A stretch of DNA of 64,000 nt from Escherichia phage bumzen. The notes beneath the pieces were generated by a model that was not told where the DNA came from, did no database searches, and worked only from the letters and a program-made list of their open reading frames with translations. Every line of letters begins with the position of its first letter. Position 1 is the stretch's first letter. The DNA lies in sequence record MN850635.1; one strand, 5' to 3'. Position numbers and translations under genes: made by a program. Positions 34,083-60,050 of the stretch are shown one piece after another.

Positions 34083-34466
34083 TCAAATACCTGTGCAGCT
34101 TCTGTTTTCTAAGAAATACTCAACACCATACATAGCTTTTTGCATCAAATCTTCTTTAAACTGGATACGATGATTGAGCATAGACTGTACATCAATATCA
34201 TCAGGGTGTTTCTCTTTAATATTTGCAGATTGCAGGAAATACTCTGCAAGAACACGATATTGGTAGTCAGTTACCTTATCAGTCATCTCTGTCAAAGACT
34301 CTTCAGAGATTGGTTTAAGTAGCTCACCATTAGCCAGAGCAACACCTTTTACAATCTGGCAAGTATCTTCTGGAACACCTGACAAGTCCACATTTGGAAG
34401 TTCTGTTGCATTGACTGGTAAATTCATTGTCATAACCATTGCAGCAGCTAATAAAATCTTTTTCAT
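34083..34466 (-). CDS. secreted/periplasmic protein with signal peptide
   Basis: 127 aa; N-terminus MKKILLAAAMVMTMNLPVNA. Confidence 0.5.
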   Translation of the reverse strand: MKKILLAAAMVMTMNLPVNATELPNVDLSGVPEDTCQIVKGVALANGELLKPISEESLTEMTDKVTDYQYRVLAEYFLQSANIKEKHPDDIDVQSMLNHRIQFKEDLMQKAMYGVEYFLENRSCTGI

Positions 34467-36573: not shown

Positions 36574-37710
36574 TTACTCATAATCCCTAATAACTAGCCC
36601 TACAGGAAACTGTAAAGAACCTTTACGAGTCATCTTCTGGAACTGAACAGTTAAAGGTTTCCCGATAAACTCTTCAGGATGTTCAGCAAGATACTGTTTC
36701 TTCTCGTGTGTAGTTTTCCATGAAACATCTACAAAGACGTTAGGAAGAGTCTCTACAACGAACTTACCATGACCACGCTTATCGGTCTTTACACCAGTCA
36801 CTTTAAACTCTTCAGTGTGCATCTTCTTGTGCTTAATCAAGAAGTATGAACGGTGACAACACTCATAGAAGGAGTCTTCAGAGATTGAACGGTACATTGC
36901 ACCTTCAAACTTAGCTTCAACCCACTTATCATGAGCTTCATCAAACTCTTCCCAAGAATTTACACGGATAGTCTGTACAGGAACAACTCTACAGGTATCC
37001 CCAAGCTCAACAATAGGTGAGTTATCAATAACTTCACGACGCTCAGGCCAAGATTTTGAATTGTCACAGATATCATACCAGTAGAATTTAAGAAGGTGAC
37101 GGTCTGGATTGTCAGCATTCTTAATCATAGATACAATATCTTCTAAGTCCCAACCATGAGCATAAATCTCGCCATCAAAGTCTTCAACTTGCGGGTGTAA
37201 TTTAAGCAGCAAAAGCAAATCTGGGATTAGTTCTGCTGGAACGTTGTAAACAGTATTCTCACGAGAATAAGCCGTGAAACTAACTGAATCAGCATCTCTT
37301 GAAATTCTGCAACGTACACCATCAAGTTTTGGTTGAGCATCAGCAGGGAACTTCAAATACTTTGCGTGGCTAACCTTTGCAGCATCATGAGCAAGCTGTA
37401 CACCTGCCTTTTCAGTATTCTGTGCAGACTCTTTTGTGTAAGCATAACCTTTGCGGTCAACTTGCTTTTTGTACTTAGCAGCAACTTCAAAGAGAGCTTG
37501 CTGTTCAGCGTTACGCTCATTCTTTTTACCGATGTTTTTAGGTTCTGCTGTATACTCTTCAAACATCATCTTGCCATTTTCTTTACCGTAGGTTGTAATA
37601 ACTTTGTTACCTACAGCAACGCATGACCAGACGTTAAAAGAGCCATCTTTATTTTGTTTGTATAGAATTGTCATTTTTAACCTCTGAGTGATACCAAGTA
37701 TTGCAAGCAT
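36574..37710 (-). CDS. ATP-dependent DNA ligase
   Basis: 378 aa ORF (true start possibly an internal Met); adenylation motif KLDGVRC. Confidence 0.75.
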   Translation of the reverse strand: MLAILGITQRLKMTILYKQNKDGSFNVWSCVAVGNKVITTYGKENGKMMFEEYTAEPKNIGKKNERNAEQQALFEVAAKYKKQVDRKGYAYTKESAQNTEKAGVQLAHDAAKVSHAKYLKFPADAQPKLDGVRCRISRDADSVSFTAYSRENTVYNVPAELIPDLLLLLKLHPQVEDFDGEIYAHGWDLEDIVSMIKNADNPDRHLLKFYWYDICDNSKSWPERREVIDNSPIVELGDTCRVVPVQTIRVNSWEEFDEAHDKWVEAKFEGAMYRSISEDSFYECCHRSYFLIKHKKMHTEEFKVTGVKTDKRGHGKFVVETLPNVFVDVSWKTTHEKKQYLAEHPEEFIGKPLTVQFQKMTRKGSLQFPVGLVIRDYE

Positions 37711-37862
37711 TACATGCGTAAAGCTCTAAGTCATTTTTATCTGGTTTATGAAAACAGTTTGCTCCGCAGTGGCAACGAAATGGCTTTCCACCAACTGTCA
37801 GGACGAAGGACTGAATCTTTCCATCAGGAGTCCGTACAGCATTTTATGCTTATCTTCTTTGT

Positions 37863-38168
37863 TCATTTCCTCTTGCCACCAATTTCTACGTCAATAACTT
37901 GAACATCACCAGCAACATCAAACTTATGAATGATGCTTTCCACAGTGTAAGTCCAACCATCAATGCGAACCAACTCACCTTCTCGTGGGACGATTGGGTT
38001 ACGTTGAGCTACCGTTGTAGTAGAGTGAACAACATCATAACAATAGATATAGTTTACTAGGACTTCCATCGTGAAACCCTCACTCAATAACCGTAGTGTG
38101 TGATTGACCATTTTTGCCATAGCTATAAGATGTTGTTGTTTGGGAGTTTGGACATCTGACAACAACAA
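37863..38168 (-). CDS. hypothetical protein (start uncertain)
   Basis: 101 aa ORF whose 5' part overlaps the lipoprotein gene in another frame; true start probably internal. Confidence 0.3.
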   Translation of the reverse strand: MLLSDVQTPKQQHLIAMAKMVNHTLRLLSEGFTMEVLVNYIYCYDVVHSTTTVAQRNPIVPREGELVRIDGWTYTVESIIHKFDVAGDVQVIDVEIGGKRK

Positions 38169-38316
38169 TATCTCTGCTTATAGCATCACCATGTAACTTG
38201 TATACTCTGCAATCTTGCATCTCTGGTGGGAGGCTGTAAGAAGCATTTTTATCTTCATAAGAAGGGTTGCAGCCAGATAGAAAAATAACACCAAGCGCAA
38301 TTACTGATTTCCACAT
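38080..38316 (-). CDS. small lipoprotein
   Basis: Trimmed to the Met preceded by GGGGTG; signal peptide with lipobox MWKSVIALGVIFLSGC; mature part about 60 aa. Confidence 0.55.
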   Translation of the reverse strand: MWKSVIALGVIFLSGCNPSYEDKNASYSLPPEMQDCRVYKLHGDAISRDIVVVRCPNSQTTTSYSYGKNGQSHTTVIE

Positions 38317-38503
38317 AATACACCCCTGTTTACTGTTCACGATGCTCTACTTCTCTGTATGTACGTCGATAATGAATGATAAGTGGTGCTAATTCATTGC
38401 TTTTAACATTTGAGCGTAACAGTTGCCAGTCAAAACCTTTACCAACTCTTCCATATAAATTAAAAAACTTAACTTTGCGTTTCATTTTCGGTATCTCCAA
38501 TAT

Positions 38504-38731
38504 TCAGAGGTTAATATTAATACGTTCGCCCTTAAGGACTCCAGTACGGTCCCTTGCAATCTTACCATCAACAATAAGGATATGCGCAGACCTTAAAGAG
38601 TCATTATTAAAACCTTTTACGAACTTACTAGGCATCACTACAATAAGCATCTCCTGAATCAACTCTGGAGTATAGCAGTTATCATGAAGTTGTTGGATAA
38701 CGTCTGCAAGTGTCATTTTTGATGTCTCCAA
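38504..38731 (-). CDS. hypothetical small protein
   Basis: 75 aa ORF. Confidence 0.35.
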   Translation of the reverse strand: METSKMTLADVIQQLHDNCYTPELIQEMLIVVMPSKFVKGFNNDSLRSAHILIVDGKIARDRTGVLKGERININL

Positions 38732-38922
38732 TACTCAATGTCAATAAGTTCTTGTGCAATGCTTTTCAGATTACCTTTCAAGAAAACCTTCTCAGAACCT
38801 GAAAGAGATGAATTGTCAATTAACCTGTTCATTCTCTCAAACAACTTCTGCTTACGGTTCTTGATAGTTTCCTTTGAAGCGCCTTTCATCATCGCTGCAT
38901 GGGTTCTTCCACGATGGCTCAT
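38713..38922 (-). CDS. hypothetical small basic protein
   Basis: 69 aa ORF. Confidence 0.35.
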   Translation of the reverse strand: MSHRGRTHAAMMKGASKETIKNRKQKLFERMNRLIDNSSLSGSEKVFLKGNLKSIAQELIDIEYWRHQK

Positions 38923-38973
38923 AAGTCCTCCTATACAAGATATTGTATAAGGTACTCTTCCCTGAGCACCTTG

Positions 38974-39507
38974 TCAACTTAGTTTTGCAAACTCTCCGTG
39001 GAGTTTAATAGCAGCTTCACAGTAAGCTTTATGGGCTTCTTCAGGGGTGTCATGGTGACCTAAAAACATCTTCTTACCTTTATAACTTATCTGTGCGACC
39101 CACTTACCAGACTTCTTCTTAAGACTTACACCCTTGTACCCAGATTTATTGGTGACTGGTTTACCTTTATTCCAAGCACTTTGAAAATCATCTGCTTCCC
39201 TTAAGTTTACAATCCTGTTGTCAAGTGAGTCTCCGTTGATATGGTCAATGATACCTTTTGGCATCTTGCCATACACGTAAAGCCATGCGAGTCTGTGTGC
39301 TTTATGTGCTTTCTTGTCAAAATAGATACTAATCTGTTTATGACCACTTGAATCAGTCTGGATATTACCTGCCACCTTTCCTGCATAATTACTGTTAAAA
39401 ACACTAACAGCTCTTGATTTACCTTCTCTACGAAGCCAAGTAAAGACCCCTGTTTCGGGGTCATAGTGCAGCAGCTCCTTTAAACGTTTTTGTAAAATTA
39501 AATCCAT
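38974..39507 (-). CDS. HNH-AP2 homing endonuclease
   Basis: 177 aa; HNH-type IDHINGD plus AP2-like YKGVS...WVAQI; N-terminus LHYDPETGVFTW shared with the ORF at 49103. Confidence 0.65.
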   Translation of the reverse strand: MDLILQKRLKELLHYDPETGVFTWLRREGKSRAVSVFNSNYAGKVAGNIQTDSSGHKQISIYFDKKAHKAHRLAWLYVYGKMPKGIIDHINGDSLDNRIVNLREADDFQSAWNKGKPVTNKSGYKGVSLKKKSGKWVAQISYKGKKMFLGHHDTPEEAHKAYCEAAIKLHGEFAKLS

Positions 39508-39510
39508 TAA

Positions 39511-42210
39511 TCAATGTACCTCATACCAGCTCTTACCAACCTTTGCTGTACCAGTTACAAGTGTTTCTTTCCTCAAACCTAAGTTTTTTGAAGCTTGTCC
39601 ATACATCCAGTCAGCAATTGCTTTCATATCATGTGTCATACCCTCTGGACATTCCCAACTATTTTCATCGTGATATGCCAGAAGTAACCTTGCTCCGATA
39701 GCTGGTTTTCGAGCATTCAGTTTTGTCAGGCCATCTTCACAGGCTTTTCTTGCTGCTAGGTTGATGGCCTCATTCTGAATCTGTGCTTCCGAACTCATCA
39801 GGAGGTAGTTCAGTAGTTTATGTGGAGATTTGCACCATATCCATGCTCCAGCGACCCTGATATAACCACCTTTAGCAATTGAAGAATTCTTCCCAAAAAC
39901 CTCTTCCAGAGCCTTTTTAGACGCCTTAAAATCGGCTTCTAAACTATCAAGTAACTTCTTAATCTTTGGCAGACGCATATAGTAAGTTTGTTTAGTCAAT
40001 GCACCTTCTTCCGTAGATGATGCCTTGATAGTTTTTGCAAACTTCTCGTCTCCGGCTCCAAATAACAGGGCGTAGATGCCATTTTTGCTCTTCTTACGGC
40101 CTTTTGTAATCTCGTGAAGAAGTTCCTCATCCTGTGTCTCCCTACAACGAACAATATCTTCTTCCTTGTTCAGACCAAAGTAAATACTGTTCAGTGTATG
40201 CGCATCAGTCCCTGTGTAGACTTCATAGAGGTCGTTCTCAGCATCATAACGAAGATACTTGTCAGTTTCTGGATTAAGATACTTATCGAGATGCTTGCAA
40301 TAGTATCTGCCATCCTCTTGCTTAGTGAACTCTACTGACTCTTTACCCTCAGTTACCGCTTTAGTGAAGTCTTCATCACCCATAAAGTTACAAAGAAGAA
40401 CTAGCTGTGCAGAGTTCTGGTCAACTGAAACGATATTAGTACCTTCCTCGCAAATCCAAACCTCCCTCATAGGTGCTCCATAGACAGCAGCACCAGACGG
40501 TACGTTTACAATACCATATTGTGTCATACGTCCAGTTGAAGTACCAAACACCATTGCACCAGCACTAAGGCGACCATCAGGACGAATCTGGTTCAACCAA
40601 CCTTTTTCATCATCCTTTGAGTTCTCAATAGTTCTGCGTCTGTGCATCAAAGTATAGTACTTAGCAATCTTCTGTCCAAGCTCACCTTCAATCGTATCAT
40701 AAGATGACTCAGTAAGTTTTGGTGAAGTACGGATTAAGCAAGGCTCAAGCAAATCTGTGTATTTCTTCACAGACCAGTTATGCTCAATGTACTGGACACC
40801 TTCATGTTCAACATAACTTAAACCACATCGTTCCACCATCTCCTGCCACTTAGGATGTTTTGTAATCATCTTTTTATTGTCTTTGAAACGACAAACTTTG
40901 ACAGGGCGACCGTCTGAGTCTTTCTTGTAGTTCCAGTCATCTGGAATCCAACCAACTGATTTCAAGTAGTCTTTAACAACTGCTACCTGAGTCATACGAG
41001 AAACTTCAAACTCAATTGGTGTATATGGTGCATCAATCAAACCTGTGTAGCGACTTGACTCAAGTTCAAAGTGGTTAACAACGTGGCTGTTATAGTACTT
41101 CACAGTTTTGACTGTTTTTACTGGCTTCCAGTCTTTGCATTTCTTACCAATCTTTGCATTCAACTCATTGCAAATTGCACGAGCATCCTTCATTGCTACA
41201 AAACCTTCCTTGTACTCTTCACCAGTTACAGAGTTGGTTGGTGTATAGCAATTCCTTTTTTCAATGTTAAAAATCTTTGTAGTTGGCTTACCAAATGGCT
41301 TGATTTCATATGTCTGCATCTCACCGTTACGTACCTGCTGACGGTACTTCGTCTTAGGGTACTTGGTAATTCTCTTCAGTCCATCTGCATGACCAAATGT
41401 TTCAACATACTCATTCCAAGCCCTTGCAAACTCTTCTCCAGTGACTTTACCTTTGGTCTTAATAGTTGGAGGAAGATGTGGTTCAACCTCTGAAGCAAGC
41501 TCATTAGTCAACTTGTCAAGTTCCTTTACATGGAACTCCATAAGCTCTTTGTCAGCTTTCCAACCATTGATAGCTTGCTGGCTCATCCAGAAAGATGTCT
41601 CTTTAGCTCGCATGTAGGTTTCATAAGTGTCTATGCCACACTTCTTAAGCTTGAGATACTCATTATCAAGTGCCCGTTTAGTTTTGGCGTTAATACGGAT
41701 ATCTTCTACAACACGAGTGAAGATTTCTGCATTCCACACACCCCAATGCTCAATCTCTGGCTTACGAACACCAACACGAGCACCCCATGCAGCCAAGCCA
41801 TGAGCACCTTTATAACCCTTTGGGGTTGGTCTATCCATCCACTGAACACGAGACTGGATAAGAGAGTCCTGAAAGAAATTACTCCACGGTTTACACTTTG
41901 GATTATCAAAGTTCCATAAATCAGGTGCAATGTGATTGAAAACCCACCAGTCATAACCGAGACCATTATGGATGCAAAGACGTTTTGCCTTTAACGCAAA
42001 TTCAACACCTTCACGTAAACCACCTTTGATGTACTTGGTATACTTGTGACCGAGGATAGGCTCATCTGTAAAGACCCATACAGGTGGCTCTTCATCGTCA
42101 GATTTATAGTCTGCGAAAGCCATTACGTGCACTTTAGTGAACTCAAGGAGTAAACCATCAGTTTCTGTATCACCAACCAAATGTAAGTTTTTAAAATCTA
42201 CGTTTTCCAT
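39511..42210 (-). CDS. DNA polymerase, family A, with 3'-5' exonuclease domain
   Basis: Start set to MENVDF, which follows a GAGGGAG RBS on the - strand; exo motif GDTETDG; about 900 aa. Confidence 0.85.
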   Translation of the reverse strand: MENVDFKNLHLVGDTETDGLLLEFTKVHVMAFADYKSDDEEPPVWVFTDEPILGHKYTKYIKGGLREGVEFALKAKRLCIHNGLGYDWWVFNHIAPDLWNFDNPKCKPWSNFFQDSLIQSRVQWMDRPTPKGYKGAHGLAAWGARVGVRKPEIEHWGVWNAEIFTRVVEDIRINAKTKRALDNEYLKLKKCGIDTYETYMRAKETSFWMSQQAINGWKADKELMEFHVKELDKLTNELASEVEPHLPPTIKTKGKVTGEEFARAWNEYVETFGHADGLKRITKYPKTKYRQQVRNGEMQTYEIKPFGKPTTKIFNIEKRNCYTPTNSVTGEEYKEGFVAMKDARAICNELNAKIGKKCKDWKPVKTVKTVKYYNSHVVNHFELESSRYTGLIDAPYTPIEFEVSRMTQVAVVKDYLKSVGWIPDDWNYKKDSDGRPVKVCRFKDNKKMITKHPKWQEMVERCGLSYVEHEGVQYIEHNWSVKKYTDLLEPCLIRTSPKLTESSYDTIEGELGQKIAKYYTLMHRRRTIENSKDDEKGWLNQIRPDGRLSAGAMVFGTSTGRMTQYGIVNVPSGAAVYGAPMREVWICEEGTNIVSVDQNSAQLVLLCNFMGDEDFTKAVTEGKESVEFTKQEDGRYYCKHLDKYLNPETDKYLRYDAENDLYEVYTGTDAHTLNSIYFGLNKEEDIVRCRETQDEELLHEITKGRKKSKNGIYALLFGAGDEKFAKTIKASSTEEGALTKQTYYMRLPKIKKLLDSLEADFKASKKALEEVFGKNSSIAKGGYIRVAGAWIWCKSPHKLLNYLLMSSEAQIQNEAINLAARKACEDGLTKLNARKPAIGARLLLAYHDENSWECPEGMTHDMKAIADWMYGQASKNLGLRKETLVTGTAKVGKSWYEVH

Positions 42211-42381
42211 TTTTACTCCCTCTAAAATCATTAACCTCATACATTACTGCAAAAAATTATAAAAAGCAAGTTGACAATGCACTTGACAAGGTGTTAATCT
42301 TTGCGAAGTGGGTTTTTACTTAAAAGGTTACTTAACAGTTTAACTATACAGATACTTTAAAACTCTTAAAAGATTATTTAA

Positions 42382-59021: not shown

Positions 59022-59317
59022 GTAAAACAATTCGAAGAAAAGGTTTAAAGAACGTTCATGGACTTTATGAGTGGAGAAATGAGGTACGTAACAGAGAAAA
59101 TGCTTCAGAGGTCTACTACCACTCTGATATGATGTCTAGAAAAGGTGGCTCTTACGACTTCACAAGCCAGCCTTGTAGAGAGATTAAGAAGGCTACTAAA
59201 CGTCTTACAAGAACACAAATAAGGCAGCTTTCTAAGACATCCTACTTAGATGAAGACTTTGACATTGATAGCAAGTCTCCAAAGAAAGCTGCTCAGAGCA
59301 CTTATATGTATTGGTGA
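59018..59317 (+). CDS. hypothetical protein
   Basis: 99 aa ORF. Confidence 0.35.
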   Translation: MSKTIRRKGLKNVHGLYEWRNEVRNRENASEVYYHSDMMSRKGGSYDFTSQPCREIKKATKRLTRTQIRQLSKTSYLDEDFDIDSKSPKKAAQSTYMYW

Positions 59318-59326
59318 GGTAACTAG

Positions 59327-59812
59327 ATGAATTACATGGAGATTCGACCATTTGATACAGCTAATGGTGAAGGGGTTCGTGTAAGCCTCTTCGTAGCTGG
59401 CTGTAAACATCACTGTGAAGGCTGCTTTAACAGGGAGTCTTGGAAGTTTAATGCTGGTAAAGTGTTCACTTATGCAAACCTCTACGGCATCATTAAGTTA
59501 ATGGATGATGATGCTGTCAGTGGGCTGTCAATACTTGGTGGAGAACCTCTGGATGATAGAAATATTCAAGAGGTTACCAACATATGCAAACGTATTAAAA
59601 CCGTTTACCCAGAAAAATCTATCTGGCTCTGGACAGGTTTTCAGTTACACGAAAAAATTCACCTAGATGTGATGAAATATGTTGACGTGGTGATTGATGG
59701 TAAGTATGATTCATCTAAACCAACAGTTAAACCATATCGTGGTTCTGATAACCAAAACCTCTGGAGAAAAGAGTATGGATGGCAAGGCGATTGTCAATGG
59801 CGAGCAGAGTGA
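59327..59812 (+). CDS. nrdG: anaerobic ribonucleotide reductase activating protein (radical SAM)
   Basis: 161 aa; Cys cluster CKHHCEGC near the N-terminus; close to nrdD. Confidence 0.75.
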   Translation: MNYMEIRPFDTANGEGVRVSLFVAGCKHHCEGCFNRESWKFNAGKVFTYANLYGIIKLMDDDAVSGLSILGGEPLDDRNIQEVTNICKRIKTVYPEKSIWLWTGFQLHEKIHLDVMKYVDVVIDGKYDSSKPTVKPYRGSDNQNLWRKEYGWQGDCQWRAE

Positions 59813-60050
59813 TTATTCTGGCAAATGGACTTACGACATCAACAAGTTAGATGCTTGGATGATTTATACGAGAGAAAAATTTGGTGCAAGTTCATTATGT
59901 GCTCTTGCAACGATGGTGAAGAACGTTACCTTTGACATTCATGACTCAGATAAGTTTGGAGACTTCTACAGGATTCAAAACATCAGAGAAGGCATGACTC
60001 CAATTGGTATCACTGAAGAAGAACTTCATAAGTTCTGTATTAAACTTTAA
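59694..60050 (+). CDS. hypothetical protein (overlaps the nrdG 3' end; start uncertain)
   Basis: 118 aa ORF in another frame; likely starts at an internal Met. Confidence 0.3.
   Translation: MMVSMIHLNQQLNHIVVLITKTSGEKSMDGKAIVNGEQSDYSGKWTYDINKLDAWMIYTREKFGASSLCALATMVKNVTFDIHDSDKFGDFYRIQNIREGMTPIGITEEELHKFCIKL

Follow-up and report, generated by a model that had tools for sequence, protein, structure and literature searches.

The 64,000-nt stretch of the Escherichia phage bumzen genome analysed here (record MN850635.1; hereafter the window, along which coordinates are given unless stated otherwise) carries, on the minus strand, a gene for a small lipoprotein. The open reading frame (ORF) starts with ATG at position 38316, ends with a TGA stop codon at 38082-38080 and encodes a 78-aa precursor, MWKSVIALGVIFLSGC followed by NPSYEDKNASYSLPPEMQDCRVYKLHGDAISRDIVVVRCPNSQTTTSYSYGKNGQSHTTVIE. 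In a six-frame lipobox scan, it was the sole credible lipobox ORF of the 64-kb window. The coordinates and the description of the ORF given in the original prediction, a reading of the DNA letters that proposed a receptor-masking, Llp-like superinfection exclusion factor, are right. The features of the gene, with their basis, are as follows:

38080..38316, minus strand: complete lipoprotein gene, 78 codons plus TGA (ORF and translation; phrog_902 match)
38323..38327, minus strand: Shine-Dalgarno-like AGGGG, 6 nt before the start codon (upstream sequence)
38272..38316, minus strand: predicted signal peptide, residues 1-15, MWKSVIALGVIFLSG (PS51257-type rule, conserved lipobox)
38269..38271, minus strand: TGC codon of Cys16, which is predicted to carry the lipid and to form the N-terminus of the mature protein (sequence, invariant column)
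38083..38268, minus strand: predicted mature periplasmic part, residues 17-78 (alignments, AlphaFold2 model)
38209..38211, minus strand: Cys36 codon; in the model, this first member of the invariant Cys pair is placed at the foot of the hairpin (sequence, alignment)
38152..38154, minus strand: Cys55 codon; the residue belongs to the invariant C-P motif (sequence, alignment)

The PROSITE PS51257-type rule for lipoproteins combines a positively charged n-region, an uncharged hydrophobic h-region and a lipobox of the form [LVI][ASTVI][GAS]C, with the Cys located between positions 15 and 35. The computed match of the N-terminus, MWKSVIALGVIFLSGC, to this rule includes Lys3 in the n-region, the uncharged h-region IALGVI and the lipobox L-S-G-C with the Cys at position 16, so that the lipobox-containing signal peptide that had been read by eye is borne out by the signal-peptide check proposed along with it. 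According to the Lol avoidance rule of E. coli, a +2 residue other than Asp leads to default sorting to the outer membrane in enterobacteria. Because the +2 residue of the mature window protein is Asn rather than Asp, the Lol pathway should by default place this predicted lipoprotein in the outer membrane. The stop codon of the upstream ORF (TAA, 38332-38330) lies just before the AGGGG motif, and the next ORF begins 10 nt past the TGA of the lipoprotein gene, which is thus tightly packed in a putative operon. An alternative upstream start codon, GTG at 38340, would yield an identical mature protein. The GC content of the gene (38.8%) is that of its neighbours.

The mature protein comprises 63 aa, including the lipid Cys (~7.1 kDa), and contains two further Cys residues, Cys36 and Cys55, in agreement with the roughly 60-residue, Cys-containing mature part described originally. 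Residues 17-28 constitute a variable tether of ~12 residues (NPSYEDKNASY), which is followed by the conserved core. Across 64 aligned family sequences, Cys16, Cys36, Cys55 and Pro56 are invariant, and Pro30, Thr60, Gly67 and Lys68 are conserved in at least 90%. The signature of the family consists of the lipid Cys, L-P-x-E-x-x-D-C, a variable hairpin, V-V-R-C-P-N-S-x-T-T-T and G-K, and all these motifs are present in the window protein. The AlphaFold2 model, for which the family alignment served as input, contains β-strands at residues 37-41, 50-54, 59-66 and 69-76. Given that the invariant Cys36 and Cys55 flank the first two strands of the model, a disulfide between them probably closes the 37-41/50-54 hairpin. 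The combination of a short tether with a small β-rich domain, as modelled, would fit a membrane-proximal binding partner, as in Llp and Rtp45, the lipoproteins of phages T5 and Rtp that are considered below.

The window protein matches phrog_902, a family of unknown function (E = 1.9e-16, residues 1-76), and has no match in Pfam, NCBIfam or PADLOC. Nearly all homologues carry, in a precomputed annotation table, a match to PF16225, which we take to be DUF4884; in the Pfam copy that we scanned, neither the window protein nor its relatives matched PF16225, so that this assignment stands on the precomputed table alone. Pfam LPAM_1 is matched by 10 of the 64 family members. The 64-member profile retrieved, at E ≤ 0.001, 1,245 cluster representatives (50% identity clusters), all of which are small proteins. 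The lipobox is present in 208 of the 213 homologues that were fetched, with the exceptions being mis-called starts, two atypical lipoboxes and one fragment, and 181 of the 208 lipobox members have exactly the lipid Cys and two further Cys. The +2 residue varies over the family (E in 44 members, D in 41, S in 34, N in 28 and T in 21). Relatives of the phage annotate the same 237-nt coding sequence (CDS) as a hypothetical protein. Among 19 distinct Felixounavirus alleles, the median pairwise ratio of non-synonymous to synonymous substitution rates (dN/dS) in the mature part is 0.064, indicating that the gene is under strong purifying selection. Overall, this is a genuine, conserved small phage lipoprotein gene, of a family that has been catalogued before, yet is uncharacterised.

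The family is widely spread among phages. A tblastn search identified a family member in 584 phage records, including Felixounavirus and its relatives, ~295 Vibrio phages of ~114 kb, the T5-like Vibrio phage JSF10, Acinetobacter phages (Obolenskvirus and Saclayvirus), the jumbo phages of Asteriusvirus and Eneladusvirus, and a T4-like Aeromonas phage. The named carrier phages that were checked all belong to what we take to be lytic groups. The mature core is 35-45% identical, with the invariant motifs retained, among phages that infect Enterobacteria, Vibrio, Acinetobacter, Aeromonas and Erwinia. The distant homologues examined are encoded mostly among genes for helicases, origin-binding proteins, ligases, tRNAs, dihydrofolate reductase (DHFR), NAMPT and RNA ligases, and some are flanked by unannotated genes only. 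The motif VVRCPNS[SQ]T accompanied by a confirmed homologue was found in only 1 of 185,579 bacterial species genomes, and therefore the family looks essentially phage-borne. The lone bacterial match, in Hylemonella gracilis ATCC 19624 (NZ_AEGR01000062.1, L044:7956-8234), adjoins an XRE-like regulator, a lipoprotein-like ORF and a secreted protein that, by eye, resembles the endonuclease/exonuclease/phosphatase group; these are followed by large ORFs reminiscent of a mobile or defence island.

Within the Felix O1 group, orthologues at least 60% identical to the window protein occur in 196 phage records, compared to 293 for the adjacent ligase. Two Felixounavirus-like contigs (P0013 and P0014) carry frameshifted lipoprotein alleles in which the frame shifts after approximately residue 46, the products ending in ...CCCQMSKLSNNNIL, indicating that the gene is dispensable in at least some lineages. 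Given these counts and alleles, the gene is common but probably not universal in the group, which fits an accessory gene.

Some metagenomic members of the family are longer and have C-terminal tails of two recurring kinds (P0053, P0056, P0086, P0099, P0187 and P0093; P0033, P0034, P0037, P0076, P0097 and P0124). One kind consists of (I/V)(D/N)G(V/E)(E/T)Y repeats split by Pro/Glu-rich linkers, and the other is helical and ends in ...ALxKLSxEExxALGL. Two further members, P0072 and P0102, end in coiled-coil-like segments. Escherichia phage BAU.Micro_ELP-22 (Asteriusvirus) encodes, two genes downstream of its family member, a second, unrelated Cys-rich lipoprotein (MIKKLLTVVFVFCTMFLTAC, followed by NDDGRF...; L008:4617-4892).

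A query of 6.5 kb around the lipoprotein gene matched 264 phage records, 166 of which cover at least 80% of the query, and most of the matches are 90-95% identical. Nearly all of these records are Escherichia, Salmonella or Shigella phages of the genus Felixounavirus, that is, Felix O1-like myoviruses of 84-91 kb, and we accordingly assign the window to a Felixounavirus genome. The lipoprotein gene is embedded in a run of genes on the same strand that includes those for DNA polymerase and DNA ligase:

36574..42240, minus strand: co-directional gene run holding the lipoprotein gene (ORF list and annotations of relatives)
39511-42240, minus strand: DNA polymerase (single 909-aa ORF)
38974-39507, minus strand: HNH/AP2 homing endonuclease (ORF list, relatives' annotations)
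38330-38500, 38504-38731 and 38713-38922, minus strand: three small ORFs between the lipoprotein gene and the HNH gene (ORF list)
37863-38072, minus strand: 69-aa ORF, downstream of the lipoprotein gene (ORF list)
36574-37710, minus strand: DNA ligase (ORF list, relatives' annotations)

Thus, the gene shares a run with the DNA polymerase and HNH genes, next to which it had been placed by the original prediction, but is not their direct neighbour, since three small ORFs separate it from the HNH gene. The PHROG matches of the small neighbours are all of unknown function, and a transmembrane (TM) scan detected no TM domain in the ORFs flanking the lipoprotein gene. For the flanking ORFs of 19 diverse family loci, the TM scan showed no consistent pattern. 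In a promoter and terminator scan of the gene run, the counts were no higher than in shuffled sequence.

Periplasm-acting small lipoproteins are the best understood means by which virulent phages shut out competitors, and the window protein was compared with the characterised representatives. Like the window protein, Llp of T5 and Cor of T1 and N15 are phage lipoproteins with precursors of 75-78 aa, a mature part of ~60 aa, a classic lipobox and one Cys pair, and Llp and Cor, too, are carried by virulent phages; Rtp45 of phage Rtp (PDB 9RPS) is likewise a lipoprotein of ~6-7 kDa with one disulfide. Llp is reported to be produced shortly after infection. Llp and Rtp45 attach to a protein receptor from its periplasmic side and distort its surface loops, and Rtp45 acts at the periplasmic face of the outer membrane by β-strand pairing with its target, LptDE (PMC12685063). 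Rtp45 thus provides an example of an exclusion lipoprotein directed at a conserved essential machine.

As positive controls, T5 Llp and T1 Cor match phrog_1119, 'Cor superinfection exclusion protein' (1e-19 and 3e-30, respectively), whereas the window protein does not match this family even at E ≤ 10. In hhalign comparisons restricted to the mature parts, the profile of the window protein's family aligned with Llp, Cor and Rtp45 at probabilities of 1%, 0.5% and 0.06%, respectively. A full-length hhalign match to Cor (probability 90%) was rejected because it comes from the signal peptide alone and is gone once the signal peptides are removed. Llp (8a60_B, 7qjf_A) and Rtp45 (9rps_D) are present in the PDB library that was searched, yet neither sequence nor fold searches with the window protein retrieved them; the PDB sequence searches matched only signal peptides of unrelated lipoproteins, and the fold search against BFVD matched only family members. 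Homology to Llp, Cor and Rtp45 is rejected on these grounds, namely, the different PHROG, mature-only probabilities of at most 1% and the lack of a fold match in the PDB. In Llp and Cor, the Cys pair connects a position near the N-terminus with one near the C-terminus of the mature protein, whereas in the window protein, 18 residues lie between the two Cys. Rtp45, which was not directly compared with Llp or Cor, looks different from them in both its mature sequence and its Cys30-Cys38 disulfide. The genomic settings differ as well: llp is divergent from oad/pb5, cor follows J-like tail genes, and rtp45 adjoins the receptor-binding protein (RBP) gene rtp44, whereas the window gene lies between DNA polymerase and ligase. 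Finally, Llp and Cor target the protein receptor FhuA, and LptD is the receptor of phage Rtp itself, whereas Felix O1-type phages are reported to target lipopolysaccharide (LPS), not protein receptors (PMC8594841). With LPS as the receptor, a mechanism at the periplasmic face of the kind employed by Llp and Rtp45 lacks an obvious target.

The closest parallel in gene context is provided by the virulent myovirus T4. The gene orders in the T4 record are 43, imm.1, imm, 42 and 61, 61.1, 61.2, sp, 61.4, dmd, 41; imm thus lies two genes downstream of the DNA polymerase gene 43, and the gene of the periplasmic protein Sp lies between primase 61 and helicase 41. As with the window lipoprotein, these are small exported or membrane proteins encoded co-directionally within replisome gene clusters, and, according to the notes of the T4 record, Imm and Sp act after adsorption of the second phage, not by receptor masking. 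They differ from the window protein in that neither is a lipoprotein: Sp has a signal peptide without a lipobox, and Imm is an inner-membrane protein. Homology can be rejected, given that hhalign of the family profile yielded probabilities of 0.2% for Imm and 0.4% for Sp. The likeness is therefore an analogy of context and does not amount to proof of function.

The reading that we tentatively favour is that the window protein is an exclusion or protection factor that acts on the envelope, is probably made early, is placed like imm and sp of T4 and acts on a conserved envelope component. Following established lipoprotein biology, the protein would be exported by Sec, lipidated at Cys16 and cleaved by signal peptidase II. 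Its β-rich domain of ~50 residues, probably stapled by the Cys36-Cys55 disulfide, would then hang on the ~12-residue tether and, like T4 Imm and Sp, would act on the envelope of a cell that is already infected. The likely effect would be one of three, namely, that later phages are stopped at or after adsorption, that the cell is protected from lysis-from-without or that fewer progeny are lost on cell debris. The conservation of the core across host genera, combined with strong purifying selection, suggests a target that is itself conserved, as opposed to a receptor specific to one lineage. Because the core is conserved in this way and the genus binds LPS, a conserved envelope component, for instance, an outer-membrane machine, a host lipoprotein or a cell-wall enzyme, appears a more likely target than the phage's own receptor.

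Several observations weigh against this reading. The early timing of expression is deduced from gene position only, and the known exclusion proteins show no sequence or fold similarity to the window protein. An all-against-all BLAST of neighbours revealed no conserved partner gene in 20 diverse loci, only scattered genes for DHFR, NAMPT, polynucleotide kinase and RNA ligase. Because the +2 residue varies, some family members may stay behind in the inner membrane, and the case for a single outer-membrane target is the weaker for it. The confidence of the AlphaFold2 model is moderate (mean pLDDT of 68; the block means lie at 72-85 over residues 21-60). Source names for family members are limited to 'hypothetical protein' and the automatic 'Lipoprotein' of UniProt, and our literature searches on the family found no paper.

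A rather unlikely alternative is that the protein is a periplasmic effector of host takeover or counter-defence, which inhibits or hijacks a conserved envelope enzyme or sensor and so keeps the infected cell intact and productive; proposed targets include a lytic transglycosylase or other cell-wall hydrolase, a protease, a nuclease, the Lol, Bam or Lpt machinery and a stress sensor such as RcsF. The invariance of the core motifs in phages of distant gamma-proteobacterial hosts is compatible with such a role, as are the confinement of the family to virulent, mostly large phages and to early or metabolic modules, its near absence from bacterial chromosomes and the varied +2 residue, which suggests that periplasmic tethering matters more than the choice of membrane. 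However, the protein resembles no known lysozyme or hydrolase inhibitor and no solved structure, it has no Pfam, NCBIfam or PADLOC match, and no conserved neighbour hints at a pathway. The available data do not distinguish takeover from exclusion.

A bolder proposal, which we consider unlikely, is that phrog_902 constitutes a receptor-independent class of periplasmic effectors of virulent phages, in which a disulfide-stapled mini-domain positioned under the outer membrane binds a universally conserved envelope machine. The candidate machines would include LptDE, BamA, Lol and the cell-wall apparatus, and the outcome would be broad phage exclusion or envelope takeover, by a mechanism unlike that of Llp, Cor and Rtp45. 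A universally conserved target would account for the presence of one conserved core in phages of five host groups.

Receptor masking of the type known from Llp, Cor and Rtp45, whereby the lipoprotein attaches from the periplasmic side to the outer-membrane receptor used by the phage itself, alters its surface loops and blocks docking of the receptor-binding protein, was the function originally inferred for this gene, and we regard it as quite improbable. What stands of that interpretation is a small lipoprotein with the hallmarks of exclusion factors, that is, a mature part of ~60 aa, one Cys pair and a short tether; kinship with Llp, Cor and Rtp45 and direct masking find no support. The size class, the single Cys pair, the short tether and the predicted outer-membrane sorting are common to Llp, Cor and Rtp45, and, given that the known factors are not all alike in sequence, missing homology alone does not exclude the mechanism. 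In JSF10, which has no other small lipoprotein beside its RBP-like gene, a family member could fill the role. Conversely, the gene is located in a replication cluster, away from tail-fibre or RBP genes, the reported target of Felix O1-type phages is LPS (PMC8594841), and the core is conserved across hosts, which together disfavour direct Llp-style masking. The protein is not a member of phrog_1119, the mature-only profile probabilities do not exceed 1%, no fold match to 8a60_B, 7qjf_A or 9rps_D was obtained, and the Cys spacing differs. In addition, a conserved core under strong purifying selection is unexpected for a factor that tracks a variable receptor.

In the late region of the T5-like JSF10 itself, a gene for a 624-aa RBP-like protein (L045:25120-26994) adjoins the terminase genes, approximately the position of oad/pb5 in T5 but in the opposite orientation. 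The phrog_902 member of this phage, in the tRNA region (L010:3998-4258), is the only small lipoprotein found in the roughly two-thirds of the genome that were scanned.

Small outer-membrane lipoproteins of phages are most often o-spanins, and a role in lysis deserves consideration. The protein could regulate the timing of lysis from the periplasm, in the manner of an antiholin, an anti-spanin or a lysis-inhibition component, or could serve as a second o-spanin-like factor, although the probability of a lysis role appears as low as that of receptor masking. The window protein shares with Rz1-type o-spanins its nature as a small phage lipoprotein with an outer-membrane signal and periplasmic cysteines. 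Some metagenomic family members have coiled-coil-like C-terminal tails, in a few phages small membrane proteins are encoded immediately next to the family member (L007, L031, L039 and L040), and Felixounaviruses carry rIIA and rIIB. However, unlike o-spanin genes, the window gene has no adjacent or overlapping i-spanin partner and does not belong to a lysis cassette; it sits in a replication cluster, and its mature product is not proline-rich, unlike Rz1. Among the 19 diverse loci checked, no i-spanin-like partner was consistently found next to the gene, and no lysis gene is prominent among the neighbours of the 20 clustered loci. Furthermore, Felixounaviruses carry a separate, complete spanin pair of the overlapped Rz/Rz1 type elsewhere, for which reason the o-spanin identity was rejected. 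In the Salmonella phage vB_Si_35FD, the lipoprotein of which is 98.7% identical to the window protein, the i-spanin is a 115-aa protein with an N-terminal TM segment and a coiled coil, encoded downstream of rIIA/rIIB (phrog_1152, 'Rz-like spanin', E = 8e-42), and a lipobox ORF of 89 aa (MKKLSQSFIMFVLLITMSGC) overlaps its gene in a different frame. By synteny, this pair falls outside the window. Its coordinates in vB_Si_35FD are:

59088-59435 of MZ327261.1 (L003:14088-14435): Rz-like i-spanin of the true spanin pair
59329-59598 of MZ327261.1 (L003:14329-14598): overlapping lipobox ORF of the true spanin pair

The labels 'i-spanin' (59401-59598) and 'o-spanin' (59595-59864) in MZ327261.1 are attached to the wrong ORFs, which have no TM segment and no lipobox. 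A published comparison reported one sister phage without an o-spanin, which may reflect the same annotation problem.

Finally, the notion of a non-functional chance ORF with a lipobox-like start, for which only the small size and the few frameshifted alleles would speak, is refuted by the conservation data (dN/dS of 0.064, 1,245 cluster representatives, conserved lipobox and Cys pair, CDS annotated in relatives, Shine-Dalgarno-like motif and operon packing) and retains virtually no credence.

To our knowledge, the characterised exclusion lipoproteins, Llp, Cor and Rtp45, are all tied to one protein receptor and encoded beside a receptor-binding gene. The phrog_902 family stands apart in being large, almost exclusive to phages, strongly constrained and present in phages with unrelated hosts and receptors, and it could reveal a receptor-independent periplasmic strategy. 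If its members are exclusion or envelope-protection factors, their target should be a conserved envelope component, which would offer a handle on outer-membrane biology, and the finding would be relevant to the design of phage cocktails, given the wide use of Felixounaviruses against Salmonella and E. coli. Should the window protein prove a minor accessory protein, the finding would be ordinary. Either way, the family is defined and testable, with the easy labels of o-spanin and Llp homologue excluded.

Two further features of the gene neighbourhood deserve mention. Downstream of the ligase gene and on the same strand, the window encodes a 127-aa protein (34083-34466, minus strand) with a classic Sec signal peptide (MKKILLAAAMVMTMNLPVNA, followed by TELP...), which matches phrog_4332, a family of unknown function. 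Given the export signals of both this protein and the lipoprotein, at least two products of this gene run seem to be exported to the periplasm. The DNA polymerase, a single ORF in the window, is annotated in vB_Si_35FD as two CDS ~230 nt apart (L002:27795-30762), and several other relatives carry the label 'DNA polymerase (x2)', which suggests a polymorphic insertion or intron next to the gene for the HNH homing endonuclease.

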